Shown: piece after piece, positions 19,288 through 54,792 of the stretch
Position numbering within the stretch: the stretch's first letter is position 1
Layout of the letters: each line of letters opens with the position of its first letter
Assembly: GCA_038330175.1 (NCBI GenBank)
Contig: JBBQNS010000001.1
Location: 15,552-79,551 of the forward strand
Reading direction: 5' to 3'
Source of the DNA: Kiritimatiellia bacterium
GTDB lineage: Bacteria; Verrucomicrobiota; Kiritimatiellia; CAIKKV01; CAITUY01
DNA length: 64,000 nucleotides
Made by a program: the position numbers and the translations under genes
The notes under the pieces: model-generated
The model's database searches: none
Seen by the model: the letters and a program-made list of their open reading frames with translations, nothing else
Told to the model about the DNA's origin: nothing

Positions 19288-20112
19288 TTAGCCTTCTAAT
19301 AGTTGTGTAAGCGCTTGGGGTGCAAGTTGTCGGCCATATTCCGACAGTTCGAACGATTCCACGTAATGGAATGAGTCGGCCTCGACGCCATACTGGGCGT
19401 GAAGTTGGGTCCGGTATAAATCGGCCTGAAGACGGTTGGAGGCTAACCATCGTTTTTCCAAAAAAGCCAATCGTTCAATCCGGGTCATGCGGCTCAGGTT
19501 AAAATCTTTGTTCCCGTCAAGCCAGGGTAGCCATTCGTAAAATTGCGACACGTGGCAGTCGAGCATCGCCAGTTTGGAGCTGACGGCATTGTCAATGGCG
19601 ATGCAGGCATCCGGACGGAACGGGGTGGGCTGTTGAAATCCATCCCAGCTCACGCAAAACACCGGCCACTCCAGGGGAATCGGAATTTCAGGGCAATACA
19701 GCGGCACCCGGATCAAAAAAGAGGCATCCTGTACCAGTTGGGCCGTTGCCCGATGATCAGCGTGGTAATCACATTGGCGATGTGAGATGACGATGTCCGG
19801 GGCGAATTCACGGATGATTTTTACGATTTGTGCCCGGTTCCCCAGTGACGGCACCAGTTGACCGTCGTGGTGATCCAATACTTGGTATTCTGCCAATCCC
19901 GCGATATGGGCGGAGGCCTGGGCTTCTGCATAACGCCGTTTGATCAGTTCAGTGGGGGACATGGCGTAATGTCCGGCATCTCCGTTGGTGGTAGACACGA
20001 ATTTCACTTTGTGGCCCAGTTTGGACAACTTGATGGCACATCCGCCGAACATCCCGTCCGGGTCATCGGGATGGGCTCCGATAATAAGAAATTTTTTGCA
20101 GGTCAACTTCAT
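19288..20112 (-). CDS. PIG-L/LmbE-family N-acetylglucosaminyl deacetylase
   Basis: LIIGAHPDDPD ... HADHRAT zinc-binding motifs. The ATG at 20112 is preferred over the TTG-extended ORF start. Confidence 0.8.
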   Translation of the reverse strand: MKLTCKKFLIIGAHPDDPDGMFGGCAIKLSKLGHKVKFVSTTNGDAGHYAMSPTELIKRRYAEAQASAHIAGLAEYQVLDHHDGQLVPSLGNRAQIVKIIREFAPDIVISHRQCDYHADHRATAQLVQDASFLIRVPLYCPEIPIPLEWPVFCVSWDGFQQPTPFRPDACIAIDNAVSSKLAMLDCHVSQFYEWLPWLDGNKDFNLSRMTRIERLAFLEKRWLASNRLQADLYRTQLHAQYGVEADSFHYVESFELSEYGRQLAPQALTQLLEG

Positions 20113-20342
20113 GGTTTTGTTAAAGAATATTGAATCCCTAGGGTTTTGCAACGTTTGATCAATCAGCCTAATTCATCCTGCCTACCTTCCGCCCCGGTTC
20201 CACTAGCGGCAGCCCCGTATTCGCTCGAGGCATAGAGTCACGAGTGAGTGAGTAGAGAGATCGAAAGATTTTCACGGCGCGATACGATGCGACCCTTCGC
20301 GGTTACGTAAGGGCCAGATGCAAGCCTTATTGCCGCAGACCG

Positions 20343-28464: not shown

Positions 28465-28468
28465 AATT

Positions 28469-29602: not shown

Positions 29603-29704
29603 TATCCTTCATGCAGACAAAATGATTAAGCCTAAACAGTTACAAAAGTGCCTCATCTTATAGCAGAAAGCGATTCACTCCGTGAGTCTAAATTGCGAAA
29701 AATC

Positions 29705-30896: not shown

Positions 30897-30967
30897 TCTT
30901 TTCTTTCCGGCACGCCAAACGTCGTCAGTAAAGTGATCGAAGAAATTTGTCATACACCCGTCTTCAG

Positions 30968-38216: not shown

Positions 38217-39215
38217 TTACACCCAGTAATAGAGTTCGCGGTACCATTTGGCCCAAGTTCGGAATCCGGGATTATCGGTCACTTCCGCCGCCGCCACTAG
38301 GGCGTCTGATGGGAACCCAAAAAAACGGTCTTTTCGGCCCAATAAGTTTTTAAACGCTTCCATGGCGGGCAAAAGGCGCTCGTTCCGAGGATGATAGACC
38401 ACCGAGGAGAATACCTTCTTATACCGGCCATTCGGATCGGCTTCAATGGCCGTCGCCAACAGCTGATTCCGCCATAATTGATTCAGCGCGCCCTTGAAAG
38501 GACAGGATGCCTCTTTCTGCAGGGTTTCAAGCGGAAAAGCGGATTCATTCTGCAAGGTGATTTTCCAGTAATTAAACTTTTTCGCAGAATGGTAGTAACA
38601 GTTTTCCCGCCCTAACCGTGCCGCTGCATTACTATCACAGGCCTCCTTGTGCCGGTTCGCCGGACTTCGATAAGCCCCGCATGCAGCAAACTCAGCTTCG
38701 GTCAATTTGTGCTCAATCAACCACAGACACAACTCCCCCTCCTGGTTCCGGTACGCGATCGCGATATCCACATCGGTTCCGCTGTCCGGAGTATGGTCAC
38801 CCAGCCGATTCACCCCTTGATCCCAGAATTCGAGGCGAAAGCCATGGCCGAGTTCCTCAACTGCAATCGATTTCAAGTCCGTCTTAACCGTCCTCAAAAC
38901 CTCAGCAGCACACACAGGCGACTCCATCAGCGGCAAAAATAGATTGGCACACGCGATTTGCGAACTGGCCATGTGGCCGGCGAATTTATGCGTCTTGAAC
39001 GGGAAGTTTTTCTGATGATTCAGGAACTGATCTCGAACGGGCCCATAGAGGTGCGGCAGCCCCTTCTGCATCTTCCCCGGCAAAATAACATCGTATAAGG
39101 CCCCGCCGAAACTGCCCGGCAGAGCCGTTATATTCCGGCTTTTCCACTCGCACAAATGGCGATACATCTCTTGCTGGAATTCATTTAATTGTTCAGGTAT
39201 TCGATATTTTATCAT
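38217..39215 (-). CDS. Hypothetical protein with a PD-(D/E)xK restriction-endonuclease-like motif
   Basis: GTDVDIAIAY...GELCLWLIEHKLTE fits the D-x(n)-(D/E)-x-K core of the PD-(D/E)xK fold. No family match was recalled. Slightly lower GC than its flanks. Confidence 0.4.
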   Translation of the reverse strand: MIKYRIPEQLNEFQQEMYRHLCEWKSRNITALPGSFGGALYDVILPGKMQKGLPHLYGPVRDQFLNHQKNFPFKTHKFAGHMASSQIACANLFLPLMESPVCAAEVLRTVKTDLKSIAVEELGHGFRLEFWDQGVNRLGDHTPDSGTDVDIAIAYRNQEGELCLWLIEHKLTEAEFAACGAYRSPANRHKEACDSNAAARLGRENCYYHSAKKFNYWKITLQNESAFPLETLQKEASCPFKGALNQLWRNQLLATAIEADPNGRYKKVFSSVVYHPRNERLLPAMEAFKNLLGRKDRFFGFPSDALVAAAEVTDNPGFRTWAKWYRELYYWV

Positions 39216-40509: not shown

Positions 40510-40599
40510 CACGCGGCTCAGCAAGCTTCGCCCACCAAAAAATATGATCCATAAGGTGGAGACAATTCTTCTGGAGGGCGAAGCTTGCTGAGCCGCGTG
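40510..40599. repeat. 24-bp perfect inverted repeat (CACGCGGCTCAGCAAGCTTCGCCC ... GGGCGAAGCTTGCTGAGCCGCGTG) with a 42-nt loop containing a nested CCACC/GGTGG stem
   Basis: Exact reverse complementarity is seen directly in the sequence. Not followed by a T-tract, so not a canonical terminator. It lies in the 330-bp gap between mtfA and the large glycoside hydrolase gene. Confidence 0.6.
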
Positions 40600-40752
40600 G
40601 GCAGGGTGAATCAGGCGAGTCTATCGGGGCCGGAACGTTCTCAGGTGCGGATTTCTTGGCCAAACGGCACAAACTATGCCATAGTCTTTACCGCGATGCC
40701 CAAAAAAGGCACGTAATAATAACCCGTTGGATCGTTTTGGAAGGTCAATTAT

Positions 40753-43700
40753 ATGAAAAAGTCCTTACTCGATGTTTTCAAAAACCCCAGTGCCGAATAC
40801 CGTGGCGCCCCGTTCTGGGCCTGGAATGGTAAACTCGAACCCGAAGAACTGCGACGGCAGATCCGGATCATGCAGCAAATGGGCTTAGGCGGATTCTTCA
40901 TGCATTCCCGGATAGGGCTCTCCACCCCCTATCTCTCCAAAGACTGGTTCAACTGCATTGATGCCTGTGTGGACGAGGCTAAGAAACAGGGCATGTCTGC
41001 CTGGCTATACGACGAGGACCGTTGGCCCTCCGGCGCCGCAGGCGGTTTGGTCACTAAAAACCCGGAGTACCGGATGCGGAGCCTGAAGGTTCATACGCTG
41101 GACAAATCAACGGATCTTAAATGGACCCAAGACACCTTGGCCGCCTTTGTTGCACGCATTGAAGGTACTTCTGTATACGATGTCCGACAGGTTTCAAAAG
41201 GAAAAACTGCTCCAAAATTAGCCTCTGGAGAAAAATTGATCGTATTCGTCATAGAATTGCAGCAGGGAAGCAACTGGTATAATGGGTTCACCTACCTCGA
41301 CACCCTCAACCACAAAGCCGTCAAAGCCTTCATTAAAGTCACCCACGAGGCCTATAAAAAACATCAGGGCAAGGAGTTTGGACGCACCATTCCCGGGATG
41401 TTCACGGATGAACCCAATCACGGCAACAAACTTGGGCATGACAACAACACGGGCGATCCGGGTGGTCTTCCTTGGACCGGAGCCCTGCCCAAGACTTTTC
41501 AGAAGCGCTATGGATATAACCTCATCCCGCATCTGGTCGAATTGGTCTTTGACGTCGAAGGGAACGGCATACGCCCCGCACGCCTGCACTACCACGATTG
41601 CGTAACACATCTTTACGTCGACGCCTTCAACCGCCAGATCTTTGATTGGTGCGCGAAAAACAAACTGACCTATACCGGACACCAACTGGAAGAGGACTTC
41701 CTTTCCAGCCAGACCAATATGGTGGGCAGTTGCCTCCGCACCTACGAGTACATGCAAGCACCTGGCATGGATCTGCTGACCGAGCGCTGGCGCGTTTTCA
41801 ACACCGCGAAGCAGGTCAGCTCCGGCGCACGTCAGTTCGGTGCCAAATGGCGATTGACCGAAACCTACGGTTGTACCGGCTGGGATTTCCCGTTCGCAGG
41901 TCATAAGGCACTGGGTGATTGGCAGGTGGCCCTAGGCATCAACCTGCGCTGTCAGCATCTCGCTTGGTACACCATGGAAGGTGAGGCTAAACGCGACTAC
42001 CCCGCCAGCATTTTCTATCAGTCACCCTGGTGGCAGTTGTATCCTAAAGTCGAGGATTATTTTGCCCGTATTCATACCGTCATGACTCGCGGCGAGGAAG
42101 TCCGGGATCTGTTGGTGGTCCATCCCGTGGAGAGCATGTGGATGCAAGTCAAAATTGGTTGGCGCGGTAATCCGGCTACTCATCATTTCGACAACCAGCA
42201 CACGAAACTGACTGAATCCCTTCTGGCACAGCATCTTGACTTCGACTTCGGCGATGAGGAACACATCGGACGTCTTGGCAAAGTGGCCAAGCAAAGCGAC
42301 GGTCCCGTTTTTCGCTTGGGCGATGCCACTTACAAGGCCGTTCTGGTACCTCCACTCAAAACCATGCGCCGGACCACCCTCGCCCTGTTGAGGAAATTCA
42401 AGGCAGCGGGGGGTACGGTCGTGTTTGCTGGCACGCCCTCAGCCTATGTCGACGCCGTCGCGTCCACGGATGTGGTTGATTTCGCCACGACCTGTCCGGC
42501 CGTTCCCCCCAACGGATCAGAGGTAGGCGCGCCGTTGGAAAAGACCTGCCGCCGGATTTCAATTGCCGACGCCGCAGGGAAGGAAATCAGTCCAGCCCTC
42601 TATCTGTTGCGCGAAGATCGCGACACCTTCTTCCTCTTCATCTGCAATACTAGTGAGGATTACACCGCCACGCAGGAGTATATCATGAACCAGCCCCAGG
42701 CACGCGACCGTACGCTAGCGTTTAGCGACGTTCGTATCCGCGGGCTCGCGGGTTGTAAGGGCGTTCCAGTTGAATTGAATCCCGAAACCGGTGCCCCCAC
42801 CGCAGTTGATTTCACCCGCAGTGCGAATGGCCTGGAAATCCGTACCAGCCTACCCACCCTTGGCAGCCGCCTGTTCTTGATACCCAAGGTGGCCACCGGC
42901 CTTCCCCTGGCAGCGGCGCCTATACTCAAAACACTGCGGACCAATAAACTCAGCGGTAAGAAATGGGATATCACTCTTTCGGAGAGCCCTAATCTGGTAC
43001 TGGATCGACCGCGCCACAAAATTGGCGACGAACCGTGGCAAAACGCTGAAGAGATCCTGCGCGTTGATCGCAAGGTCCGAGCTTCCATGGGGATCCCGCA
43101 CCGGTCAGGCGATATGATTCAGCCTTGGGCGAGGACTCCTAATTCGAACCCGAAACGGACGCAGGTCTCCTTGGCCTACACCTTCGACTGTCAGGCCTTG
43201 CCCACTGGCGACCTGTTCGTCGCCCTGGAACAGCCACAGACTTTCCGGGTGTCACTGAATGGCGTCCCCGTAAGTCAGGACGCTCAATGTGGCTGGTGGG
43301 TGGATCTCTCGATGCACAAGTTACCACTGGATCCGGCGGTATTGCGCCTGGGCCAGAATGAACTGGTACTGGAATGTGATTATGTCGAAACTCACCCCGG
43401 CTTGGAAATCGTATACCTGCTCGGGAACTTCGGAACACAGGCCCATGGCACGAACGTGGGCATCACCGCCCTGCCAACCTCACTCCAACTGGGCGACTGG
43501 GTGCCACAGGGGTTAACCTTCTACTCCGGTTCCGTCAGCTACCGACGACGCGTCGAGTTGAAGGCCGGGAAAGGCGAGCGCCTGTTCATCCGCGTCCCCG
43601 AATATCGCGGCGTGGCGGTGAGGGTTTTGGTGGATGGCAAGGAAGCCGGAATTGTAGCCTGGGAACCCAATGAAGTCGAAATCACCGGTCTTGCCAATGG

Positions 43701-43890
43701 CACGGCGGACTTGCAGATCCAACTCATCGGGCATCGGCGCAATTCGCATGGGCCTTTCCATCTGACTGAAAAGTGGCCCAGCTGGACTGGACCGGGCGAA
43801 TTCGTCCGGAGCGGCGATGGATGGCTTGACGGCTATCAACTTGTGCCCTGTGGCCTGATGGCCGAACCTGAACTCATCGTGCGAAGCTGA
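40753..43890 (+). CDS. Large glycoside hydrolase, probably GH106-like (alpha-L-rhamnosidase-type); the family is assigned from memory
   Basis: N-terminus EYRGAPFWAWNGKLEPEELRRQIRIMQQMGLGGFFMHSRIGL...WLYDEDRWPSGAAGG recalls the Glyco_hydro_106 N-terminal consensus. A 1045-aa ORF with no signal peptide. Confidence 0.55.
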   Translation: MKKSLLDVFKNPSAEYRGAPFWAWNGKLEPEELRRQIRIMQQMGLGGFFMHSRIGLSTPYLSKDWFNCIDACVDEAKKQGMSAWLYDEDRWPSGAAGGLVTKNPEYRMRSLKVHTLDKSTDLKWTQDTLAAFVARIEGTSVYDVRQVSKGKTAPKLASGEKLIVFVIELQQGSNWYNGFTYLDTLNHKAVKAFIKVTHEAYKKHQGKEFGRTIPGMFTDEPNHGNKLGHDNNTGDPGGLPWTGALPKTFQKRYGYNLIPHLVELVFDVEGNGIRPARLHYHDCVTHLYVDAFNRQIFDWCAKNKLTYTGHQLEEDFLSSQTNMVGSCLRTYEYMQAPGMDLLTERWRVFNTAKQVSSGARQFGAKWRLTETYGCTGWDFPFAGHKALGDWQVALGINLRCQHLAWYTMEGEAKRDYPASIFYQSPWWQLYPKVEDYFARIHTVMTRGEEVRDLLVVHPVESMWMQVKIGWRGNPATHHFDNQHTKLTESLLAQHLDFDFGDEEHIGRLGKVAKQSDGPVFRLGDATYKAVLVPPLKTMRRTTLALLRKFKAAGGTVVFAGTPSAYVDAVASTDVVDFATTCPAVPPNGSEVGAPLEKTCRRISIADAAGKEISPALYLLREDRDTFFLFICNTSEDYTATQEYIMNQPQARDRTLAFSDVRIRGLAGCKGVPVELNPETGAPTAVDFTRSANGLEIRTSLPTLGSRLFLIPKVATGLPLAAAPILKTLRTNKLSGKKWDITLSESPNLVLDRPRHKIGDEPWQNAEEILRVDRKVRASMGIPHRSGDMIQPWARTPNSNPKRTQVSLAYTFDCQALPTGDLFVALEQPQTFRVSLNGVPVSQDAQCGWWVDLSMHKLPLDPAVLRLGQNELVLECDYVETHPGLEIVYLLGNFGTQAHGTNVGITALPTSLQLGDWVPQGLTFYSGSVSYRRRVELKAGKGERLFIRVPEYRGVAVRVLVDGKEAGIVAWEPNEVEITGLANGTADLQIQLIGHRRNSHGPFHLTEKWPSWTGPGEFVRSGDGWLDGYQLVPCGLMAEPELIVRS

Positions 43891-43943
43891 TTGCAGAGCA
43901 CTTACCTTGCAGTGGCGGGCGTTTTGGATATGATGTTTTCATC

Positions 43944-45626
43944 ATGACGATGAAAGATCAAATCAAGACGCTTGCCACTGAACTGGGGTATCAGGTTTGT
44001 GGCATTACGGGTATCCAGCCGTTTGAAAAATATCAAACGGCTCTCAAAGAACGCTCTCTGCGCTTTCCAGAAGCCGCCCACCTCTATCAGGAGATGGAGC
44101 AGCGTATCGATCCCACCACTAACGCACCTTGGGCAAAGTCCATCATCGTCGCGGTCCGCCGTTATGGAAAATACGACCTACCCGACTCCATCACCGGACA
44201 CATCGGGCGGAACTATCTTTGTGATCGTCGCATCAAGGGGTGTCCCGATAACGCCCTGCCGAAACGCATGAAGCAGGGTCTCATCGCGCTGGGACACCGC
44301 GTCAAAATAGGAGGCGTGCCCTGTCGAGAAGCCGCCGTCCGCGCAGGAATCGTTAAAATCGGGCGAAATGGATTTGCCTATGCCGACGGGTGTGGTTCCT
44401 GGCTGAATATTGAGGCTTGGCTGATTGATGCTGAGCTTGAGCCCGACGCGCCATCCACCCAGAAGGCCCCCTGCCCCCCGGGATGTCGAGCCTGTCTGGA
44501 TGCCTGCCGAACGGGCGCCCTTGCCGAACCCTATGTTATGAATATGAAGCGCTGCATCGCTCGCTTGACCTACGGCGAAGAGGCGCCCATTCCCACTGAC
44601 TTGTGGAATAAAATGGGGCCTTGGATTTATGGATGTGATGACTGCCAGACTGCCTGCCCCATGAATCATGGAAAATGGAGCCCGCTGGAGCCTGCCCCTT
44701 GGATTAAGGACATTGCCGATCGTTTAACGCCAGAGGCGCTCGCCTCCATGGATTTGGATACCTACAAAAAAATCATCTATCCTCTTTTCTGGTACATTTC
44801 CGAAAATGATGTGGAACGTTGGCACCGAAATGCAAAACGCGTGATTGAATTGGCTAAAGAGCACCCACCCGCTCTACCTCGCACGGCGACGTACTTCGAA
44901 GGGACGCGCCCTTTGCTGTTTGAAAACTTATCCCTGCCCTCGGAACTACGCGTCATGGTGCTCGCCCCACATCCCGACGACTTTGATGCTATCAGCGTTA
45001 CCCTTCGGTATCTACACCAGAACGGTAACCCCATTAACCTGGTGGTACTGACTTCAGGTGACAGTGGCGTCGAGGATGACTACGCCAACGCACACCTGCC
45101 GTTGACCAAAGCCGAAATCCGGGAAATTGAACAAAAAGCCAGCTGCCAGTTTTTCGGCCGACCTGCGGAGCATGTCCAATTTCTTCGGTTCGCCACCGAC
45201 GCGATGGGAAGTATGCTGGCGGACACCGAGAATCTCGAAAGTCTCCGCACCTCCATTCTGGCGCTCCGCCCGGATATTGTCTTTTTGCCACACGGAAACG
45301 ACACCAATGCCGATCACCGGCGCACGTATGCCTTTCTCCAAAAATGTGTTCAGCAGGAAAAATTATCACTGGTCGCCTGCTTAAATAGGGATCCCAAGAC
45401 CATCGCCATGCAGGAAGATATGTTGACACTATTTACGGCAGAAACTGCGGAATGGAAAAAAGAATTGCTACGATTCCATGATTCCCAACAGCAACGCAAC
45501 CTTCGCACGCGTGGACATGGCTTCGATGACCGGGTGCTTAAAAGCAATCTACGCTCTTTGCCAGCAGGGCAGGATTCATTACCCTTTGCCGAAATTTTCG
45601 AACTGGAATTCTTTTCCCACGAATAA
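43944..45626 (+). CDS. Fusion protein: N-terminal epoxyqueuosine-reductase (QueG)-like double-[4Fe-4S] domain joined to a C-terminal PIG-L/LmbE deacetylase domain
   Basis: N-terminus MTMKDQIKTLATELGYQVCGI (QueG/DUF1730-like), then CPPGCRACLDACRTGAL...CDDCQTACPMNHG ferredoxin motifs. C-terminus VMVLAPHPDDFD...HGNDTNADHRRT is a LmbE signature. Confidence 0.6.
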   Translation: MTMKDQIKTLATELGYQVCGITGIQPFEKYQTALKERSLRFPEAAHLYQEMEQRIDPTTNAPWAKSIIVAVRRYGKYDLPDSITGHIGRNYLCDRRIKGCPDNALPKRMKQGLIALGHRVKIGGVPCREAAVRAGIVKIGRNGFAYADGCGSWLNIEAWLIDAELEPDAPSTQKAPCPPGCRACLDACRTGALAEPYVMNMKRCIARLTYGEEAPIPTDLWNKMGPWIYGCDDCQTACPMNHGKWSPLEPAPWIKDIADRLTPEALASMDLDTYKKIIYPLFWYISENDVERWHRNAKRVIELAKEHPPALPRTATYFEGTRPLLFENLSLPSELRVMVLAPHPDDFDAISVTLRYLHQNGNPINLVVLTSGDSGVEDDYANAHLPLTKAEIREIEQKASCQFFGRPAEHVQFLRFATDAMGSMLADTENLESLRTSILALRPDIVFLPHGNDTNADHRRTYAFLQKCVQQEKLSLVACLNRDPKTIAMQEDMLTLFTAETAEWKKELLRFHDSQQQRNLRTRGHGFDDRVLKSNLRSLPAGQDSLPFAEIFELEFFSHE

Positions 45627-45638
45627 CAATAAGAGAAT

Positions 45639-46523
45639 TTACAGGCCGTTCGCGCGCCGGGCAGACTCCACAGTGTTGTAAAGCAACATGGTGATGGTCA
45701 TGGGCCCCACCCCACCGGGGACCGGCGTGATCATGCTGGCTTTAGCCATGCATCCATCAAAATCAGCATCGCCTACGAGTCGGAAGCCCGCCTTCTTAGT
45801 GGAATCTTCAATCCGATTTACCCCGACATCAATGACAACCGCGCCTTCGCGAATCATATCGGCGGTCACGGTATTAGGGCGCCCCGCCGCCGCAATCACA
45901 ATATCCGCCTGGCGGGTATACTGAGCAATATTCTTAGTTTTCGTATGACAGACGGTCACCGTCGCATTACCCAGTGGGCCTTTTGCCATCAGCATATTGG
46001 CCAGTGGCTTGCCGACAATATTGCTGCGTCCAACAATCACCACATACGCGCCTTCTATTTTCACGCCACTACGCGCCAACATCTGCAGGACGCCATGGGG
46101 TGTGCAGGGCAGAAAGGCTTTTTCGCCCACCAACATACGCCCGACATTGGTAGGATGGAACCCATCCACATCTTTCTCGGGATCGATCGTCAGCAATACT
46201 TCACTTTCATTCAGATGCTTAGGTAAAGGTAATTGAACCAGAATACCGTTGATGTGGGGATCCGCATTCATTTTTCGGATCAGAGCCAGCAGTTGCGCCT
46301 GCGAGGCATCGACCGGAAGGCGGTTGTCATCGGAGAAAATCCCGATTTCGTGACACGCCTTTTCCTTGGCCGTTACATAGGACCGTGACGCAGGATCATC
46401 CCCAACCAAGATCACCCCGAGACCGGGCACAACGCCCTTCTCTTTTAGTTGCTTAATTTCCACAGTCAATTCTTCGCGAATTTGCCGGGCAATCTCTTTA
46501 CCATCAATAATCTTTGCGGTCAT
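45639..46523 (-). CDS. folD: Bifunctional methylenetetrahydrofolate dehydrogenase / methenyl-THF cyclohydrolase
   Basis: Full-length FolD similarity (AKIIDGKEIA..., GILVQLPLPKH, VVIVGRSNIVGKP). Start at 46523. Confidence 0.9.
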   Translation of the reverse strand: MTAKIIDGKEIARQIREELTVEIKQLKEKGVVPGLGVILVGDDPASRSYVTAKEKACHEIGIFSDDNRLPVDASQAQLLALIRKMNADPHINGILVQLPLPKHLNESEVLLTIDPEKDVDGFHPTNVGRMLVGEKAFLPCTPHGVLQMLARSGVKIEGAYVVIVGRSNIVGKPLANMLMAKGPLGNATVTVCHTKTKNIAQYTRQADIVIAAAGRPNTVTADMIREGAVVIDVGVNRIEDSTKKAGFRLVGDADFDGCMAKASMITPVPGGVGPMTITMLLYNTVESARRANGL

Positions 46524-46552
46524 GGTGTCCTTTGCTTGTGGCGCAAAACCGT

Positions 46553-48325
46553 TCAAAACAAGCCTTTTACCCGACCGGTTTCGACATCAATATCGATGTT
46601 CGCGAAAGCCGGCTCCGAGGCCGTGCCCGGCATCAACTTGATTTCACCAGCCACGGGCACCACGAAACCAGCTCCTCGATAGACCAGCATATCCCTAATC
46701 GGCAGAGTCCACCCTTTTGGCCGCCCCTTAAGCGTGGGATCATGCGAAAGGCTCAAATGCGTTTTTACCATACAGGTTCCCATGGCCGCAGTAGCTGGAT
46801 CCGCCTCTAATTTGAGAGCTTTATCCAGTGCCACCTCGCTATAGCTCACCCCGTCAGCCCCGTAGATCTCCTTGGCAATTAATTCAATCCGCTGGCGGAG
46901 CGGGGTCTTGAGATCATAAAGAAATTTGAAGTCATTCTTCTCATTAGCCGCCGTCACCACCACTTCAGCCAGTTCGCGGGCACCTTCGCCCCCCTTGAGC
47001 CAATGCTGAGAGAGCGCCACATAAGCTCCGTGCTGCTCCGCCACTTTGCGCACCAACGCCACTTCCGCCGCCGTATCCGTGTAAAAACCATTGATGCATA
47101 CCACCGGGCGCACACCGGACTTTTTGACAATTTCAATATGCGCGACCAGGTTCTCACAACCCTTTTCAAGTAAACCGAGGTTCTCGCGAATATACGCCTC
47201 ATCCAATTTGGCGCCGGGTTTAACTTCCGGACCGCCGCCATGCATCTTCAGCGCCCGGATCGTTGCCACCACGACCACCGCACTCGGCTTCAACCCCGAG
47301 AACCGGCACTTCAGGTTCCAGAATTTTTCAAACCCAATATCCGCAGCAAAACCGCTTTCGGTGACATGGTATTCCGCCAATCGGGTTCCAATTTCATCAG
47401 CGATAATGGAACTCTGTCCAATGGCAATATTAGCAAACGGACCGGCATGCACAAAGATCGGCTGACCTTCCACCGTTTGAACTAGGGTGGGATTAATGGC
47501 ATCCACCATCCAGGCGGCCATCGCTCCATCCACCTTCAAATCCGCCGTAGTGATTTCATTGCCATCCCTATCACAGGCCAGAACCATCCGCCCCAACCGT
47601 TGACGCAAATCCTTGAGGTCTTTGGAAACGGCCAAAATAGCCATGACTTCACTGCCCACGGAAATCTGAAAACCGGAGTCCATTTCGAGACCATCCATCT
47701 TGCCGCCGCGTCCAATTGTGATATTTCGCAAGCTCTGGGCGCAGAAATCCATGCACCACTTCACACTCACCCGTGCCGGATCCACATTCAACCGCCGGAT
47801 CCCCGTTCTGGCCAGACGGGCATCATCGTAGTTTTTCTCGTGTTGCATCCGGGAGGTCAAGGCCACCATCGCTAGATTATGCGCATTGGTAATGGAATCG
47901 ATATCACCCGTCATGCGGATGGAGAAAGGTGCCAGGGGAATACACTGCGAAATACCGCCCCCTGCCGCAGAGCCTTTGATGTTAAACGTAGGGCCGCCGC
48001 TGGGCTGACGAATCGCACCGGTCACCGATTTGCCTAGCACCGACAAGCCTTCAATCAGCCCGATCGTCGTGGTGGTTTTCCCCTCGCCCAATGGCGTAGG
48101 GGTGATGGCGGTGACATCGATGTATTTACCCACCGGCCTGGAACCAATCCGCTCCATCACGGCACGCTGATCCACCTTCGCCAACTGCCGCCCCATCATG
48201 ATCACTTCGTTTTCGTGAAGGCCCAACTCGGAGGCCAACTGCATGACCGGCTTCATGGTTTGCTCAGCCGCTTCCGCAATTTCCCAGTCTTTCATCTTTG
48301 TCGGGTCTAATTTCAATCGCGTCAT
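46553..48325 (-). CDS. fhs: Formate--tetrahydrofolate ligase
   Basis: A 590-aa ORF with the P-loop [15 protein letters not shown] and full-length Fhs similarity. Confidence 0.9.
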
Positions 48326-48351
48326 ACAATTTCTCCTGAAACTCGATTAGC

Positions 48352-48591
48352 TCATTCCACCAATTTGCCTTCACGATGGGCCAGAATAAATTCCACGCCG
48401 AATAGGTCCTCACCCGTCAACAACGCCTGGGCAAGCTTAAATGACTCAGACGCTGTATCCACCGCCGTCAAAATTTTCCCGTTCATTTGAAGCGGATCCA
48501 AGATCCCACTGTCGCCGCCCGCTTCCACCACCATCCAGGTAAAGACCTGACGGAAGCCTGAGAGGCCCCCCTTCTCCTCAATTTTCACCAT
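48352..48591 (-). CDS. Small hypothetical protein (~80 aa) overlapping the 3' end of the upstream nuclease gene
   Basis: Overlaps the end of 48578–49165 by 14 nt. The start at 48591 (MVKIEEKGG) is preferred over the longer ORF-track call. No domain recognised. Confidence 0.3.
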   Translation of the reverse strand: MVKIEEKGGLSGFRQVFTWMVVEAGGDSGILDPLQMNGKILTAVDTASESFKLAQALLTGEDLFGVEFILAHREGKLVE

Positions 48592-49165
48592 GCGCTTGCT
48601 CGTATTTTTTGATCGCGTCCCTGATTTTAGCGGCCTCTTCGTAGTTTTCCTTGGCGATCGCTTTATCCAACTTGGCCTTAAGTTGTTCCAGTGGAGGCCC
48701 AGCTGGCTTAGGCGCCGCTGCCACATGCGCTTGATCTCCCGTTTTTGCGGGAGCCTCTTGCGCTTTCGCCTCATCCAGTAACACCCCTACCTTATTCATT
48801 ACCTCCGCGGTAACATAAAGCGGAGTAGAACATCTCAACCCGAGGGCAATGGCATCACTAGGGCGCGCATCAATTTCAGTTTCAACCCCGTCATGCTCCA
48901 GCACCAGCACCGCATAAAATGTGTTTTCGATCACCTCTTTGACCACCACGCGTTTCAACCGGCATTCCATGCAGTCCAAGACGTTTTTAAACAAATCGTG
49001 GGTCAAAGGCCGGGGAATCTGCACCTTTTCGAGCCACAACGCTATCGATTGAGCTTCCGTTCCCCCAATAAAAATGGGCAACGTCCGAGGATCAGGATCC
49101 CCCTTGAGTAGAATCACAAATCCAAGATTTGATAACGACAAACCAGCTACTTTGACATGAACCAT
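48578..49165 (-). CDS. Bifunctional nuclease (BFN/DUF151) domain protein with a C-terminal UVR motif
   Basis: BFN-like core (FIGGTEAQSIALWLEK...RPLTHDL) and a C-terminal UvrB/UvrC-type UVR helix (EQLKAKLDKAIAKENYEEAAKIRDAIKKYE). Confidence 0.6.
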   Translation of the reverse strand: MVHVKVAGLSLSNLGFVILLKGDPDPRTLPIFIGGTEAQSIALWLEKVQIPRPLTHDLFKNVLDCMECRLKRVVVKEVIENTFYAVLVLEHDGVETEIDARPSDAIALGLRCSTPLYVTAEVMNKVGVLLDEAKAQEAPAKTGDQAHVAAAPKPAGPPLEQLKAKLDKAIAKENYEEAAKIRDAIKKYEQAHGEN

Positions 49166-49313
49166 AAATCACCTCTCTATAATCATTTATCTTAACACGC
49201 TTCACCGCACCGTGAAAAGGAGGAAGAGTTCATCAGATACAATGGGGTGCATCTGCGATCATTGGTGTTTTCAATGGATGTCGAACAGCATATCGTTTAT
49301 ATATTCTCCACTC

Positions 49314-49832
49314 ATGAAGATTATCGCCTGTGACCAACGCCACGTACCGCAAATTAGGACCATTTTTAATGATGCCATCTTGAATTCTACGGTACTCTGG
49401 GAATATGAGCCCCGCAGCCTGAAAACAGTCACGGACTGGTTTGAATCGAAGCGAAAGGGATCCTTTCCTGTAATTGGAATGGAAAATGATTTGGGTGAAT
49501 TCATGGGATTTGCCAGTTATGGAACTTTTCGTGACCGGCCGGGATATAAATACACTGCCGAACATTCCGTATACGTCGACCAACGGTTCCGCGGAAAGGG
49601 AATTGGCTCTCTCTTGATGAAGGAGTTGATCGTAAGCGCCCAATCTCACGATCTCCACACCCTGATTGGAGCCATTGATACCACCAATGAAGCCAGCATC
49701 GCGCTCCATCGCAGCCTTGGCTTTGAATACTGTGGCAGCATCAAACAAGCTGGCTTTAAGTTCGGGCGCTGGCTGGACATGGTCTTTTATCAGTTGATCT
49801 TGCCTACTCCGGCCCGCCCCATCGCTGGCTAA
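49314..49832 (+). CDS. GNAT-family N-acetyltransferase (phosphinothricin/PAT-like)
   Basis: GNAT motif A QRFRGKGIGSLLMKELI. ATG at 49314 (MKIIACDQ). Its TAA stop lies at the first bases of the adjacent repeat element. Confidence 0.75.
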   Translation: MKIIACDQRHVPQIRTIFNDAILNSTVLWEYEPRSLKTVTDWFESKRKGSFPVIGMENDLGEFMGFASYGTFRDRPGYKYTAEHSVYVDQRFRGKGIGSLLMKELIVSAQSHDLHTLIGAIDTTNEASIALHRSLGFEYCGSIKQAGFKFGRWLDMVFYQLILPTPARPIAG

Positions 49833-50015
49833 CAGCCTGTCGGGCTGCGCACCCTCGTAAGGCTACCGGCGGAGACCGCCGGCTCCAGAATATAGCTCGC
49901 GTCGGTAATCAAGCGCCATGTGCTTCACATTGCTTAATCCACCGAGGATAGCCCCGGATCTCCATCTTTGGAGCCGGCGGTCTCCGCCGGTAGTGAAGGT
50001 CTAGGCTGAAGGCGG
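49831..50015. repeat. MITE/REP-like element copy (left arm, diverged centre, and a truncated right arm)
   Basis: CAGCCTGTCGGG...CTACCGGCGGAGACCGCCGGCTCCAGAATAT...TTGGAGCCGGCGGTCTCCGCCGGTAG. The centre is ~75 % identical to the 7246–7452 copy. Confidence 0.7.
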
Positions 50016-50198: not shown

Positions 50199-50756
50199 GT
50201 GAACGAAGAAGAACTAGATCTACTTGTCGAACGGATCCAAAACGGTGACCGGGAGGCCTTTGGCGAAGTAGTGTTTGCCATCCGTAAAGAACTGCGGATT
50301 TTCCTCTCTGCCCACGCTTGCTCCGTCGATATGGTCGAAGAAGTACTCCAACACACCTTGGTGGTATGTTACGAAAACATCGCGAAATATGAACGACGCG
50401 GCACCTTTCTTTCCTGGACCAAGGGCATTGCCCGTAATCTCATGCTCAAAGAGCTTAAGGCCCGCTCCCGCTATGTGGCGCCCGGAGAGGACGAATTGGA
50501 TCGGATCGTTCTCGATGCCTCCATGCAATCGATCAAAGCCTTGGATCGTGAAGAAGTTTACGTGGAACACCTGCGCCATTGCCTCACTAAACTGTCCGAT
50601 GACTCACGCCAACTTGTGCAACAACGGTATTTCGACCGGTTATCAATCCGGGAGCTTGCGGAACGAAATCACCGAACCGAAACCTGGGTTGCTGTCGCCT
50701 TGTTCCGTGTGCGAGACATTCTGAGAGATTGCATGATGAGAGAGGTGGCCTCATGA
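50199..50756 (+). CDS. ECF-family RNA polymerase sigma factor (sigma-70 region 2 + region 4)
   Basis: ELDLLVERIQNGDREAFGEVV (region 2 start) and a C-terminal RQLVQQRYFDRLSIRELAERNHRTETWV HTH (region 4). Probable GTG start at 50199, with a GAGGG RBS 9 nt upstream. Confidence 0.8.
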   Translation: MNEEELDLLVERIQNGDREAFGEVVFAIRKELRIFLSAHACSVDMVEEVLQHTLVVCYENIAKYERRGTFLSWTKGIARNLMLKELKARSRYVAPGEDELDRIVLDASMQSIKALDREEVYVEHLRHCLTKLSDDSRQLVQQRYFDRLSIRELAERNHRTETWVAVALFRVRDILRDCMMREVAS

Positions 50757-52561
50757 ATGAACAAGAATTCATCCTGTTGATGGAAGAATACCTTGAGGGA
50801 AGCATTACCCCCCAAGGCCGGTTTGCCCTCAAGACCGAAGTATTAAAAAATCCCACACGCCGCCAGCTCTTTGAAAACCAGGCGCGGCAACATGTGCGGC
50901 TCCATGCCCAATCCAGCCGGATCGATTTCTCAGAATCTCAACGTATCGCCGTCATGGTCATGGATATTGCAGATAAGCAGAAGGAACCCAATGCCTTCAT
51001 GGAACTGATCCGCAAAAAAACCTTCCGTGAACGGGCCTCGTTGATTCTGAAAGGACTGCGAGCCGCTCCGGGCACGCCCGCCCACCGCGCAGCCAAAGCC
51101 GAATTAATTCGAATATTCGGCCCCGCAAGCCTTTCAGTAGTCGTCAATGTCGCCGCCCTACTCCTGCTCCTGTTCTGGGTTCCCTACGTCCTCCCCCCTC
51201 CGCCCGGCGACAGCAGAGCAGATACCGAAGGCGTCGTCATCAATCTGGGTGATCCCCAGGCGGACAATTCGAAACCACAAGCTGATAATAATCCTGATAA
51301 TTCCCAATCGGACTCACACCCTGATAAGGGCTCGATATCGGCCCCAAATATCGGCACTGCGCAAGGCCCAGTCGGCCCCATCATTCCGGGGTACGATGGG
51401 CCCCCGACGGACATCATGGATATAGCCCCCCCGGGAAAACCAAATAATGATGGCGACCTCCTGGCTATGACCCCGAAAACCAAGGGGATTACAGCGTCCC
51501 TATTTCCCGGTTCCCGCGGTAATCGCGACAGAAAGGATCGTGACCGTATTCTTATTGAACAAAAGGCCACCAAAACGGAGATAGCCGTAGTGAAAGCCCT
51601 CAAGTGGCTCAAAGCCAAACAATTACCGGATGGAAGCTGGCCGGGCCAGGATACTACGGCCATGACCGGCTTGGCGTTGCTCACTTACCTGGCACATAAC
51701 GAAATGCCGACATCACCCCAATTCGGTGACACCGTAACGCACGGCCTGCAAAGCCTACTTAAAAATCAAAGCAAGGATGGCGCCTTTTCACAAAACGTCT
51801 ATGCGCACGCCATTGCCACCTACGCCATTGCGGAAGCGTATACCATGACGCGCATCATGGATCTTAAAGCTCCTCTCGAAAAAGCGGTCAGCGTCATCAT
51901 TAAAGGTCAGCAAACTAATGGCGGTTTCGATTATAACTACCTGAAAGGATCACGGTTCGATACCTCCGTCACGGGTTGGCAAATTCAAGCGCTAAAGGCC
52001 GCGCGTACCGCAGAGCCCGACATGGACGGTTTGGAAGAAGCGCTCGCCCGCTCCACACGATTCCTTCTCTCGGATGCCTTTGCCCGAGATGGAAGCGGCT
52101 TTGTCTATGAGGGAAAAAACGGGGTCGTGTCCGCCAGCGGCGGCAAACAGAGCATGACAGGGGTCGGCACCCTCTGCCTGCAAATGCTTGGCAAAAATAC
52201 TTCAGCCCCGGTCAGGGCAGGACTTAAAGTGCTTCAGAATGCCGAACTCGAATGGGTGCCTGATGGCAAAGCCAATGTCTATACCAGCTATTATGTAGCG
52301 CAAGCCAAGTTTCAGAGCGGGAATCAACCCGAGTGGATGCGCTGGAACCTCAACATGCAAAAAATCCTACTGGCCAGGCAGGATAAAGACGGACACTGGG
52401 AGCAAGGCGACTTCGATAATGGCTCCCATGTCTATACCACCACACTTTGCGTATTGATGCTGGAAGTGTATTATCGGTATCTTCCTTCTGATGCACATCC
52501 AATCGAACAAAAACCAGCAGGAAAGATCGTCTCAGGAGATGTCCTCATTGACGTCCTCTAA
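50753..52561 (+). CDS. Anti-sigma factor-like membrane protein with a C-terminal prenyltransferase/squalene-oxidase-repeat (terpenoid cyclase / alpha-alpha toroid) domain
   Basis: ATGA overlap with the sigma gene stop. The N-terminal cytoplasmic helix EEYLEGSITPQGRFAL is anti-sigma-like. There is one TM segment (VVNVAALLLLLFWVPYVL) and a Pro/Asp-rich linker. C-terminal repeats KWLKAKQLPDGSWPG...NQSKDGAFS...GQQTNGGFDYNY. Confidence 0.65.
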   Translation: MNEQEFILLMEEYLEGSITPQGRFALKTEVLKNPTRRQLFENQARQHVRLHAQSSRIDFSESQRIAVMVMDIADKQKEPNAFMELIRKKTFRERASLILKGLRAAPGTPAHRAAKAELIRIFGPASLSVVVNVAALLLLLFWVPYVLPPPPGDSRADTEGVVINLGDPQADNSKPQADNNPDNSQSDSHPDKGSISAPNIGTAQGPVGPIIPGYDGPPTDIMDIAPPGKPNNDGDLLAMTPKTKGITASLFPGSRGNRDRKDRDRILIEQKATKTEIAVVKALKWLKAKQLPDGSWPGQDTTAMTGLALLTYLAHNEMPTSPQFGDTVTHGLQSLLKNQSKDGAFSQNVYAHAIATYAIAEAYTMTRIMDLKAPLEKAVSVIIKGQQTNGGFDYNYLKGSRFDTSVTGWQIQALKAARTAEPDMDGLEEALARSTRFLLSDAFARDGSGFVYEGKNGVVSASGGKQSMTGVGTLCLQMLGKNTSAPVRAGLKVLQNAELEWVPDGKANVYTSYYVAQAKFQSGNQPEWMRWNLNMQKILLARQDKDGHWEQGDFDNGSHVYTTTLCVLMLEVYYRYLPSDAHPIEQKPAGKIVSGDVLIDVL

Positions 52562-53486
52562 CCCCCATGCCCCTAGCGGCCTGAAAGGCTGGGTTTCGCT
52601 ATTTCGCCCACCTAATCTATTTACGGTACCCGGCGATCCCCTGATCGGCGCCCTTCTGGCTGCCTTGGCGCTGAAAACGGTTCCGCAGTGGAATGCCATT
52701 TATGCCTTAATGGGTGCTGCCCTCGCCTTCTATGCCAGTGGACTGCTGGCGAATGATTTCTTTGACCGCGCGATTGACGCCCAAGAACGGCCTAATCGGC
52801 CCATTCCATCTGGTGCCGTGAATGCCAACGCGGTGAAATGGGTTGCCATTTTACTCTCACTCGTAGGCTTGAGCCTGACTCTCCCTGCGGGGCGTCTTGC
52901 CAGCGAGATCGGACTCCTTTTAACGCTGAACGCCTGGTTCTATGACGCGTATGGAAAAAAGATGGCATGGCTCGCCCCCTTCTCCATGGGATTATGCCGA
53001 GGTTTGAGCGTATTGTTGGGCGCTGCCGCACTGGGCCTCAACGGCCTCACCTCCCCAGCCGTGCTGATTGCCACCCTTTTCATGACCCTTTACATCGCAC
53101 TTATCACAGTCATCGCTCGACACGAAGCTGATCCCGACGCCGCCCCGATTCCCACCGGAATTCGCTGGGGAATCCCGGTGGTTTTGATCCTGTGGCTCAC
53201 CCTCCTCCTGATCAGACCGGGGGCATTAGAATTCCAGTGGAAAAGCCTGGCCACCCTAGTGGCCGCCATGTCTATTCTCTGGTCCATTCTATGGACAGCC
53301 CAGATGAAACCCCATGCCTCCCCTCGCCTCATTCAGGCGGCGGTAGGCGGCCTGATCCGCGGACTGCTCTTTACCCAAGCAGCACTCTGCGCCTCCTATG
53401 GAGCAACGGGTGAAGGCTTCGCCTTCCTCCTGCTCTTCCTGTTCCCGGTAAGTGGCTGGATCGGAAGATGGTTTTATGGTAGTTAA
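52539..53486 (+). CDS. eboC: UbiA-family prenyltransferase (EboC-like)
   Basis: UbiA motifs LLANDFFDRAIDAQERPNRPIPSG and 8–9 TM helices. First of four tightly coupled genes. Confidence 0.7.
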   Translation: MSSLTSSNPHAPSGLKGWVSLFRPPNLFTVPGDPLIGALLAALALKTVPQWNAIYALMGAALAFYASGLLANDFFDRAIDAQERPNRPIPSGAVNANAVKWVAILLSLVGLSLTLPAGRLASEIGLLLTLNAWFYDAYGKKMAWLAPFSMGLCRGLSVLLGAAALGLNGLTSPAVLIATLFMTLYIALITVIARHEADPDAAPIPTGIRWGIPVVLILWLTLLLIRPGALEFQWKSLATLVAAMSILWSILWTAQMKPHASPRLIQAAVGGLIRGLLFTQAALCASYGATGEGFAFLLLFLFPVSGWIGRWFYGS

Positions 53487-53493
53487 GGCTCAC

Positions 53494-54792
53494 ATGAAAA
53501 AGCGACTGGTCATCATTCAAGTGGCAGGATTGGGGCACAATTTCCTAACCGAATCTCTCGGCACACAGTGGAAGGGGCTCACCTTTAAACCGCTCAAGAG
53601 CGTCTTTCCCGCGCTGACCTGCACCGCTCAGGCCACCTTCCGAACGGCCGCACCTATAGCAAACCACGGGATGGTCGCTAATGGGCGGTACCATCGTGAA
53701 CTCCGAAAGCCATTGCTCTGGGAACAATCCTGCGATTTGGTCTCCGGCCCACGAATATGGGACTCTTTTCGCCAAAGCGGAAAACGCGTGGCCCTGCTTT
53801 TCTGGCAGCAATCGTTGGGCGAAGCCGTGGATATTATCCTTTCGCCCTCCCCCATCCACAAACATGGTGGCGGCATGGTCCAAAGCGTATACAGCCAACC
53901 TGCGGGCCTTTATGAATCTCTCTGTAAATCCATCAAACGCACGTTCCCTCTGCACCGTTATTGGGGGCCCCTCGCCTCGCCAGCCTCGTCTGACTGGATT
54001 GCACGCGCGACGGCGCTTCTTCTGGCTGACCGCTCCCAAGCGCCTGATCTTTGCCTGACTTATCTACCCGCCCTCGATTACGATCTCCAGCGGCATGGTC
54101 CCAAACACCCGTCCGCCCAGCGCTCTTTGACCGCCTTGCTTGCGCAGCTTTCACTCATCCGGAACGTCGCCGATGAAAATGGGTACGATCTCATCATCTT
54201 CGGTGATTACGCCATCGGGCATTCCTCTCAAGCCATCTTCCCCAACCGCGCCTTACTTCACGCTGATTTATTCAAAACCCGCACCGTCGAAGGCCGACTC
54301 TATCCGGACTTCCACGCCAGCCAATCTTTTGCGATGGTCGACCATGAGGTTGCCCACGTCTACCTGCGCCACCCCGCCGATCTCGAAGCCACGCGCACCG
54401 TCTTGGCAACCCTTGAGGGAGTTGAAACCATCATGGATGCCCATGCCCAACAGCTTGCCGGAATCGCCCACCCGCATGGGGGCGAATTGGTGCTGGTAGC
54501 CAAACCAGGGTACTGGTTTGCCTACCCGTGGTGGTCCGACAAAAAACAGGCCCCCGACTTTGCCACGCATGTGGATATCCATAACAAGCCCGGCTATGAT
54601 CCTTGCGAACTGTTCTTCGGTTGGCCTCCCATTTCTGTGAGTCAAGATACAAGCCGAATCAAGGGCTCACATGGTACCACGGGGAACGAGCGCGCGGCCA
54701 CGTGGGCCAGCACGTGCTCCTTTAAGGGTACCCCAGCTAATTTGCAGGAACTCGCCCAACTCGTGAAGCAACACCTGGAGACATTATCGTGA
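53494..54792 (+). CDS. eboF: Alkaline-phosphatase-superfamily nucleotide pyrophosphatase/phosphodiesterase (EboF-like)
   Basis: AP-superfamily type-I phosphodiesterase-like pattern (LVIIQVAGLGHNF...LTCTAQATFRT...YLPALDYDLQRHG). Start at 53494 (MKKRLVII). Confidence 0.65.
   Translation: MKKRLVIIQVAGLGHNFLTESLGTQWKGLTFKPLKSVFPALTCTAQATFRTAAPIANHGMVANGRYHRELRKPLLWEQSCDLVSGPRIWDSFRQSGKRVALLFWQQSLGEAVDIILSPSPIHKHGGGMVQSVYSQPAGLYESLCKSIKRTFPLHRYWGPLASPASSDWIARATALLLADRSQAPDLCLTYLPALDYDLQRHGPKHPSAQRSLTALLAQLSLIRNVADENGYDLIIFGDYAIGHSSQAIFPNRALLHADLFKTRTVEGRLYPDFHASQSFAMVDHEVAHVYLRHPADLEATRTVLATLEGVETIMDAHAQQLAGIAHPHGGELVLVAKPGYWFAYPWWSDKKQAPDFATHVDIHNKPGYDPCELFFGWPPISVSQDTSRIKGSHGTTGNERAATWASTCSFKGTPANLQELAQLVKQHLETLS

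Follow-up and report, generated by a model that had tools for sequence, protein, structure and literature searches.

A genuine but rare in-frame fusion of a QueG-like Fe-S module to a predicted PIG-L deacetylase in a Kiritimatiellia bacterium, probably captured at an overlap of convergent genes

To our knowledge, the established chemistries of the class III cobalamin (B12)/Fe-S enzymes are only two, namely epoxide reduction by QueG and dehalogenation by the reductive dehalogenases (RdhA). Here we describe a gene in which a relative of QueG is joined in-frame to a predicted deacetylase of the PIG-L/LmbE (CE14-type) family, located at 43944..45626 (+) of a 64,000-nucleotide stretch from a Kiritimatiellia bacterium (GenBank assembly GCA_038330175.1, contig JBBQNS010000001.1, positions 15,552 to 79,551; hereinafter the window, with coordinates counted from its first nucleotide). 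The N-terminal half of the protein and its standalone relatives are hereinafter termed QueGL. QueG itself is defined by a strictly conserved D-Y-H motif (D104-Y105-H106 in Bacillus subtilis), a catalytic Asp134 in a mobile loop, and a HEAT-like domain at the C-terminus, whose three repeats bind the anticodon stem-loop; Asp104, His106 and Asp134 are each strictly conserved, and their Ala mutants are inactive in vivo (PMC4646009, PMC5175355). The RdhAs rely on a Tyr paired with a basic residue instead of the Asp of QueG (PMC4646009). Natural fusions of class III B12 enzymes have a precedent in the self-sufficient fused reductive dehalogenases such as NpRdhA (PMC10463259), which add an electron-donating reductase, whereas the QueGL fusion adds a hydrolase without a redox role.

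The gene comprises one reading frame of 560 codons followed by a TAA stop, with no internal stop codon. Pfam searches with the fusion protein detected a Fer4_16 domain (residues 180-241, E-value 1.9e-14) and a PIG-L domain (residues 338-467, E-value 9e-18; 65.5 bits against a cutoff of 28.2), and together with the profile TIGR00276 they confirm the QueG-like plus PIG-L two-domain architecture proposed in a preliminary description of this DNA. The solved sequences nearest to the protein are QueG 5d08 and 5d6s, with weaker matches to one reductive dehalogenase and one archaeal PIG-L enzyme. Given that the protein collections hold just one full-length example, it might be suspected, as the preliminary description itself had cautioned, that the frame is an assembly chimera or a product of a sequencing error that erased a stop or frameshift between adjacent genes. 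We give this explanation almost no credence: a Logan assembly (L001, run SRR19962012, 9278 nt) is an exact substring of window 40584-49861 that covers both junctions, such that two assemblers yield the identical sequence; nothing longer than a 5-mer repeats at the junctions; the third-codon-position G+C content (GC3) of the inserted segment, 0.567, matches that of the neighboring genes; a diverged copy from another sequencing run shares the open junction; and both halves are under strong purifying selection. The ratio of nonsynonymous to synonymous divergence (dN/dS) of the N-half against unfused relatives is 0.06-0.10, the same range as that of the unfused relatives among themselves, while that of the C-half between the window and the diverged copy is 0.12 at a synonymous divergence (dS) of ~1.65 (saturated). 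Both modules are thus intact and under purifying selection, and because a diverged second copy exists and dN/dS is low on both halves, the fusion is a genuine, old and evolutionarily maintained in-frame gene fusion, though still a rare one.

Its rarity was gauged by two protein searches, a word-indexed search over 5.8 billion clusters and an exhaustive HMMER scan over 1.84 billion representatives. In the former, both halves are spanned only by the window's own protein (P0001); in the latter, the best 150 matches each cover either residues ~1-310 or residues ~315-560. Among the clusters of the N-half family, 110 are standalone versus a single full-length fusion. The word-indexed search, however, seems to drop targets whose length is far from that of the query (e.g., the 258-residue P0271 was unlisted for the 560-residue query, as were P0001, with 560 residues, and P0112, with 776 residues, for the 258-residue query), a tendency that can hide or mimic 'unique' architectures and makes the rarity estimates lower bounds; more copies may exist on short contigs. 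Indeed, the view that the fusion is a singleton is ruled out by a second copy lying upstream of a truncated gene call. The nearest relative of the C-half, P0271 (258 residues, ~70-71% identical to the window C-half), is encoded on a 1149-nt contig (L008, run SRR23617164), in which the 94 nt upstream of the called ATG stay open in the same frame and read ISENDLDRWHQNAKRA..., the QueGL C-terminus; the junction reads ISENDLDRWHQNAKRALESTQPESPPSDRIA-MPTPPRAAQYF..., with the QueG-like C-terminus running into the PIG-L module over a linker eight residues longer than that of the window. The truncated call had masked this copy, which is followed by a different, co-directional gene, as opposed to the convergent folD of the window. 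A literature search found no paper on the QueGL-PIG-L combination, and nothing relevant on QueG-like paralogs or on queuosine or B12 in Kiritimatiellia. The preliminary description, which considered the combination uncharacterized and advised a search for it elsewhere, therefore holds up in that neither the two large protein searches nor the literature offered another full-length example, while the second copy emerged from L008; the combination is essentially unreported and was seen in the window and L008 only.

The N-module (residues 1-306; 43944..44861, +) is predicted to be a QueG-fold class III cobalamin/2x[4Fe-4S] reductase-like domain. TIGR00276, the NCBIfam equivalog profile for QueG, aligns residues 7-311 to its positions 1-312 of 337 (E-value 4e-37) with a score of 127.9 bits, below its curated cutoff of 200 bits; as controls, Escherichia coli QueG scored 510.5 bits and the tested QueGL family members 101.7-136.2 bits, all of them below the cutoff. 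An AlphaFold2 (AF2) model of residues 1-315 derived from 61 family sequences (predicted local distance difference test, pLDDT, 96.9; predicted template modeling score, pTM, 0.92; disordered after about residue 306) retrieved in Foldseek searches the QueG structures of B. subtilis (5T8Y, 5D0B, 5D08) and S. thermophilus (5D6S) as the best matches (template modeling score, TMq, 0.72-0.76; 24-26% identity; E-value 4e-17 to 1.5e-15), followed by reductive dehalogenases and then MMACHC. With a full-length TIGR00276 alignment and a QueG fold at a TM of 0.75, the N-half is QueG-like and not a generic ferredoxin, as had been supposed beforehand; the DUF1730-like start attributed to it was not borne out, since Pfam DUF1730 was not detected.

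The likeness to QueG is collinear from the N-terminus to just beyond the second cluster, and extends to the predicted ligands of both clusters. The first motif is C177-x3-C181-x2-C184-x3-C188, followed by R, and the second is C204...C231-x2-C234-x3-C238-P239; the eight Cys (44472..44660, +) align with C188/191/194/198/214/240/243/247 of B. subtilis QueG and are kept in 61/61 family members. The eight Cys had thus been rightly noticed, though not the spacing of the two CxxCxxCxxxCP motifs in which they had been cast. Likewise, R128 corresponds to the corrin-shielding Arg141 of B. subtilis QueG in all four alignments and is kept in 61/61 members.

The active-site region (44211..44327, +), in contrast, departs from QueG in the HMMER, MAFFT and HHalign alignments when compared at the QueG residues established in PMC5175355 and PMC4646009. 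The position of D-Y-H is occupied by N90-Y91-L92 according to HHalign and a small L-INS-i alignment and by C100-P101-D102 according to a gapless HMMER alignment, and the string DYH occurs in one of 61 distant QueG-like representatives. Y91 is invariant and matches the Tyr of D-Y-H in the HHalign and small L-INS-i alignments. The position of Asp134 is taken by K121 in three alignments and by G123 in HHalign; position 121 is mostly basic across the family (n=61: K 39, R 18, Q 3, L 1), and no acidic residue occurs in the loop R119-P126 (part of the stretch R119-V-K121-I-G-G-V-P-C-R128) in either the query or the family consensus. The hallmark residues of QueG are therefore missing in every alignment register. 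The N-half further has a conserved basic insertion relative to QueG (D94-R-R-x-x-x-C-P-D102...PKRMK) and only ~65 residues after the second cluster, compared with ~120 in E. coli QueG: a helix RWHRNAKRV matches RWLRNIAVAL of E. coli QueG, the next ~70 residues of which are without a counterpart, the HHalign alignment to QueG ends at residue 243, and Pfam HEAT finds no match in the fusion protein. About two of the three HEAT repeats are missing, and in the fusion protein a deacetylase is attached. Judged from its sequence, the N-half is a QueG-fold paralog and not QueG by family-membership criteria, as it fails four features that define QueG. Because the D-Y-H/Asp signature and most of the HEAT domain are missing, the QueGL substrate is probably not epoxyqueuosine-tRNA in the way that QueG handles it.

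The RdhAs (PceA, 4UR3; NpRdhA, 4RAS/6ZXX; 8Q4H) share with the N-half the class III cobalamin plus 2x[4Fe-4S] architecture and are its second-best structural matches, at E-values of 1e-6 to 1e-3 with a TM of just 0.3-0.5. In one alignment register, Y91 and K/R121 resemble the RdhA Tyr and its basic partner, raising the possibility of an RdhA-like Tyr-Lys dyad in the N-half, with the caveat that the loop register is alignment-dependent. Unlike the RdhAs, the N-half has no match to TIGR02486 (RdhA) at E<=0.01, no twin-arginine translocation (TAT) signal and no RdhB context, and is much smaller.

The standalone QueGL proteins of ~310 residues form at least 110 clusters at 90% identity in Kiritimatiellia and Lentisphaeria. 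Their genomic contexts are scattered and of a housekeeping type (folD/fhs, leuB, HinT, recR-dnaX, dnaN, miaB), as opposed to being specific to carbohydrate-active enzymes. Such scattered housekeeping contexts are the typical pattern of tRNA-modification genes, and they leave a divergent epoxyqueuosine role, or another role in RNA modification, conceivable for QueGL, if rather unlikely. In a Lentisphaeria metagenome-assembled genome (MAG; GCA_032251435.1, L023:5657-8753), a bona fide miaB (TIGR01574, 479 bits versus a cutoff of 355) ends at nt 7000 and a standalone QueGL gene starts at nt 7001, followed by a gene for a 265-residue protein of unknown function and then a ribosomal-protein operon; this is an operon-like link of the QueGL family to tRNA modification or translation in one lineage only. 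Elsewhere, TadA-like and RtcB genes lie near QueGL (L027). In another Kiritimatiellia lineage (L020:2931-7972), QueGL is divergent from, and 46 nt away from, a pair of genes for a NuoF-like/GltD-like NAD(P)H-dependent Fe-S flavoprotein, which is conceivable as an electron donor for QueGL.

These contexts bear on whether the N-half and the standalone family are simply the epoxyqueuosine reductase of this lineage, a divergent 'short' QueG with other catalytic residues, in which case the deacetylase would be an unrelated appendage of an enzyme that modifies tRNA. No other family comes nearly as close in sequence and fold as QueG does, the cluster ligands and Arg141 are conserved, Y91 equates to the Tyr of D-Y-H in the HHalign and small L-INS-i alignments, the housekeeping-type contexts include the miaB-QueGL operon by the ribosomal-protein cluster along with TadA-like and RtcB genes, and members of the family are annotated as epoxyqueuosine reductase by the Joint Genome Institute (JGI). 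Against this, the tested members score 100-136 bits where the TIGR00276 cutoff is 200 and E. coli QueG reaches 510, the essential Asp104, His106 and Asp134 have given way to N/L (or C/D) and K/R (or G) with no acidic residue left in the catalytic loop, and HHalign leaves unaligned the ~65 residues past the second cluster, a region of ~120 residues in E. coli QueG. On balance, we hold a true QueG identity to be rather unlikely, though it deserves serious consideration, and the JGI label is likely wrong, which affects predictions of queuosine synthesis and of B12-dependence in Planctomycetes-Verrucomicrobia-Chlamydiae (PVC) bacteria. More broadly, the existence of a widely distributed, conserved QueG-fold family whose active site has been rebuilt and which lacks the HEAT domain for tRNA binding points to an alternative queuosine route or to a third chemistry. 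In the latter vein, the ~310-residue proteins of Kiritimatiellia and Lentisphaeria may be neither epoxyqueuosine reductases nor dehalogenases, with a basic residue in place of the catalytic Asp of QueG; that they constitute a third class of class III cobalamin/[4Fe-4S] reductases whose substrate or its precursor is, as the PIG-L fusion would hint, an N-acetylated amine requiring deacetylation within the same pathway is a speculation to which we assign a low likelihood.

The N-module is joined to the C-module by a Pro-rich linker (residues 307-316, HPPALPRTAT; 44862..44891, +) that is predicted to be disordered, with the pLDDT dropping after about residue 306, and that sits between the point where standalone QueGL proteins end and the conserved lead-in of the PIG-L domain. 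The C-module (residues 317-560; 44892..45623, +) is a complete PIG-L/LmbE domain and a predicted Zn deacetylase: the Pfam match spans profile positions 1-127 of 129, and the module can be aligned over its entire length with standalone PIG-L proteins of ~255 residues, with which it shares its size and a subfamily-specific N-terminal lead-in (F.G.RP..L..L.LP..LRV). Like the characterized PIG-L/LmbE/CE14 proteins (3WE7/8BGN; BC1534, 2IXD; TT1542; BshB, 6P2T; MshB), it has the PF02585 domain with the HPDD and D-H motifs. When 14 subfamily members are aligned, the residues of the predicted metal-binding and catalytic site (H343, D345 and D346 of HPDD, together with D457-H458) do not vary, and both motifs have counterparts in archaeal diacetylchitobiose deacetylase. 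The signature PHPDDFD foreseen for the module is present at residues 342-348; the literal HxxH that was to accompany it is not, and the second motif instead reads H450-G-N-D453-T-N-A-D457-H458. The relationship to characterized members is nevertheless distant, the subfamily having its own lead-in: a subfamily profile reaches the archaeal diacetylchitobiose deacetylases, BC1534, TT1542, LnmX and BshB at just E-value 3e-10 to 3e-6, and the BshB1 and BshB2 models score 26 and 19 bits on the C-module versus cutoffs of 183 and 195.

Most members of this PIG-L subfamily are standalone, and one close standalone relative adjoins BNR-sialidase-like and sulfatase genes. The other fusion partners are GNAT (on either side), radical SAM/SPASM, receiver, glyoxalase and a DUF5060/apiosidase-like hydrolase, the last being flanked by GH5 and WbsX/GH99 genes; there is also a resemblance between the subfamily and the C-terminal region of NCBIfam NF002557 ('glucosamine-6-phosphate deaminase-like protein', a NagB-like fusion family). 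All these fusions use the same add-on module, attached N- or C-terminally to another enzyme, but none has a QueG-fold partner. In P0157 (951 residues), the subfamily occurs at the C-terminus of a SPASM plus radical-SAM enzyme, another Fe-S redox enzyme. From its domain partners and neighbors, the subfamily is a promiscuous add-on module that appears to lean toward glycan or amine metabolism. A link of PIG-L to the DUF5060 hydrolase of the window was considered and rejected; P0112 shares with it a small DUF5060 domain, and that weakly (23% over 118 residues).

We then compared the locus with its unfused relatives. Scans of genome and metagenome contigs retrieved ten standalone loci from Kiritimatiellia MAGs and lake metagenomes whose identity to the N-half is 64-80% (75-80% in nine), all matching just residue 1 to ~300-310 and none with a PIG-L gene in its flanks. 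The close standalone genes encode 302-323 residues, with 308 in 5/9. Four of these loci (L010, L011, L012, L015) have the convergent folD and fhs directly downstream of QueGL, with folD 91-94% identical to that of the window (tetrahydrofolate dehydrogenase/cyclohydrolase; 45639..46556, -; Pfam THF_DHG_CYH), which thereby serves as the anchor of synteny. In the same four, the 308-residue gene ends ...RALQ[AT][AV]R[AP]PG-TGA, with its last 8 codons overlapping the last codons of folD. Relative to them, the window has a segment of ~797 nt (44842..45638, +), made up of the linker, the PIG-L coding sequence, the stop and 12 nt, which both DNA and protein comparisons place after codon ~300 of the resident gene and ahead of the old tail of that gene. 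This tail, TTACAGGCCGTTCGCGCGCCGGGC (LQAVRAPG; 45639..45662, +), is homologous to the QueGL ends of the relatives and is now orphaned 12 nt past the stop of the fusion, where it overlaps the last codons of folD on the other strand; the old TGA that followed it is now AGA.

Two simpler narratives of this arrangement were rejected. Loss of a stop codon between adjacent genes in the window lineage fails as the relatives have no PIG-L gene there and as the insert is followed by the old tail. Nor does the relic tail itself prove an insertion, for it is the antisense of the conserved C-terminus of folD and would be present either way. On a related note, the QueGL/folD overlap in the relatives (e.g., L012:1693-1716) measures 24 nt, with the ALQAVRAPG-stop tail antisense to the ...RRANGL-stop C-terminus of folD, and the ends of both proteins therefore co-evolve. 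That the fused form is the derived one follows from the standalone state of every one of the 110 other clusters and of the ten loci. The Kiritimatiellia lineage would accordingly have had ancestrally a standalone QueGL gene, of 308 residues in the closest syntenic relatives; a ~0.8-kb segment of linker plus PIG-L would then have been captured at the QueGL/folD overlap, replacing the old tail and extending the frame to 560 residues. In-frame capture has a mechanical explanation here because QueGL and folD leave no gap between them, and any insertion breaks one of the two genes.

A question raised by such a capture is whether the deacetylase is still translated separately, also or even mainly, so that the locus would give two proteins. 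In the L008 copy the ancestral PIG-L start is still an ATG, preceded at six nt by AGGA, and the window offers GTG (44841), TTG (44850) and ATG (M338) as in-frame candidate starts. In the window, however, the ancestral ATG is replaced by CCA (Pro308), neither the GTG nor the TTG is preceded by a Shine-Dalgarno-like sequence, and M338 falls within the conserved PIG-L lead-in at a position that is not Met in relatives. We therefore consider separate translation very improbable; given the lost internal start and the lack of a Shine-Dalgarno-like sequence, the window most likely yields its deacetylase in fused form alone.

Turning to function, the N-module would pass low-potential electrons via its two [4Fe-4S] clusters to a corrinoid and thence to a substrate that is reduced, the substrate probably being something other than epoxyqueuosine-tRNA handled in the manner of QueG; the C-module would hydrolyze an N-acetyl group with a metal bound by His/Asp/His. 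Most likely the two act independently, in which case the fusion would be a pairing that is co-expressed and tolerated, and not a machine whose two steps depend on each other. Such independence is favored because QueGL and PIG-L genes are never neighbors elsewhere in the loci examined, because fusions of the PIG-L module involve many unrelated partners, and because the geometry of the locus explains in-frame capture mechanically. Taken as a whole, we regard as probable the account by which the in-frame fusion arose from a capture at the QueGL/folD overlap and comprises two modules that are most likely catalytically autonomous.

Several points weigh against this account. The L008 contig shows just 31 codons of the N-half and linker, and its downstream gene is unlike that of the window; a single fusion event followed by transfer or rearrangement and two separate events both fit the two copies. 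The direction of change, i.e., insertion as opposed to deletion in the relatives, rests on parsimony; the register of the D-Y-H and Asp loops varies with the alignment method (HMMER, MAFFT, HHalign); and the cofactor content and both activities are predictions. Further, retention over saturated synonymous divergence together with the lost internal start is what would be expected under selection for the fused state, and radical SAM, another Fe-S enzyme, is also fused to the same PIG-L subfamily. The last two points would fit a functional coupling, whereby the PIG-L domain takes the N-acetyl group off a small molecule, a sugar or a nucleoside and the B12/Fe-S domain reduces that molecule or a neighboring intermediate of the pathway; the fusion would then be a 'Rosetta stone' pointing to the substrate on which the QueG-like family acts. 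In favor of this, the fusion is retained in two lineages at saturated dS with both halves constrained, the window copy is without an internal ATG or Shine-Dalgarno sequence such that PIG-L is made just as a fusion, the subfamily recurs on the radical-SAM/SPASM enzyme P0157, and an active site unlike that of QueG makes a new substrate plausible. Yet in the ~19 other loci examined QueGL has no PIG-L gene in the surrounding 6-10 kb, the fusion is very rare compared with the hundreds of standalone genes for each half, the partners of the PIG-L subfamily are many and unrelated, and the overlap geometry supplies a mechanical reason for in-frame capture. Coupling is thus possible but unsupported, and we deem it unlikely. 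Autonomy of the two modules is retained as the preferred account. Nothing shows a new chemistry in the fusion: its parts are of known kinds and the combination is new. The fusion nonetheless is a clean, datable example of the birth of a bifunctional gene, by insertion between overlapping convergent genes and in-frame capture, and offers a testable, if weak, functional lead on whether the two activities are linked.

The gene immediately upstream was described beforehand as GH106-like, correctly so: it encodes a 1045-residue hydrolase (40753..43890, +; Pfam PF17132, E-value 1.8e-12) and is separated from the fusion by a 53-nt gap, in which no convincing promoter or terminator was found. The carbohydrate-related role that had been drawn from this neighbor is not supported, as an 80%-identical GH106-like gene also lies upstream of unfused QueGL in two other loci (L014, L018) and the contexts of the family are of the housekeeping type; these unfused loci show the GH106-QueGL adjacency to be both older than the fusion and independent of it. 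The 64-kb window contains neither queuosine nor cobalamin genes, and an Rfam scan of it gave no match, hence no cobalamin riboswitch or other RNA element. A defense role for the fusion was rejected, there being no PADLOC match.

The window also contains a second PIG-L gene that is standalone and not part of the fusion. The preliminary description was right that it is a real PIG-L gene (E-value 5.7e-26); its coordinates are, however, 19288..20151 on the minus strand, and it belongs to a different subfamily, 26% identical. Directly beside it is an AbiEii toxin gene (20343-21859, -; Pfam 1.5e-35; PADLOC 8e-108), with an overlapping open reading frame (ORF) of 216 residues at its start that is likely the AbiEi partner. 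Another gene of the window (38217-39215, -) codes for a protein of the PD-(D/E)XK nuclease family of the 'REase-ARP' type (E-value 1.4e-22), without a PADLOC match, and sits between genes for a DUF5060/GH5-like hydrolase and an M90 peptidase. A sugar-metabolism run (22838-30913, -) encodes an ATP-binding cassette (ABC) permease, 6-phosphogluconate dehydrogenase, a short-chain dehydrogenase/reductase (SDR), a LarA-N-like protein, an NAD-epimerase, an aminoglycoside phosphotransferase (APH)-type kinase and aldose 1-epimerase; its ORFs 22838-24061 and 23895-25403 overlap by ~170 nt as listed, and one start is probably further downstream. A co-directional cluster (50729-57211, +) combines a squalene-hopene-cyclase-like protein (a weak match), a UbiA prenyltransferase, a type I phosphodiesterase, a 3-dehydroquinate-synthase-like protein and a 416-residue protein without a Pfam match, and could be a prenylated cyclitol or lipid pathway. 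Finally, a gene for a GH18 chitinase or endo-beta-N-acetylglucosaminidase with an F5/8 type C domain (61302-62951, +) represents an N-acetylglucosamine-releasing enzyme that shares the window with the two predicted PIG-L deacetylases.

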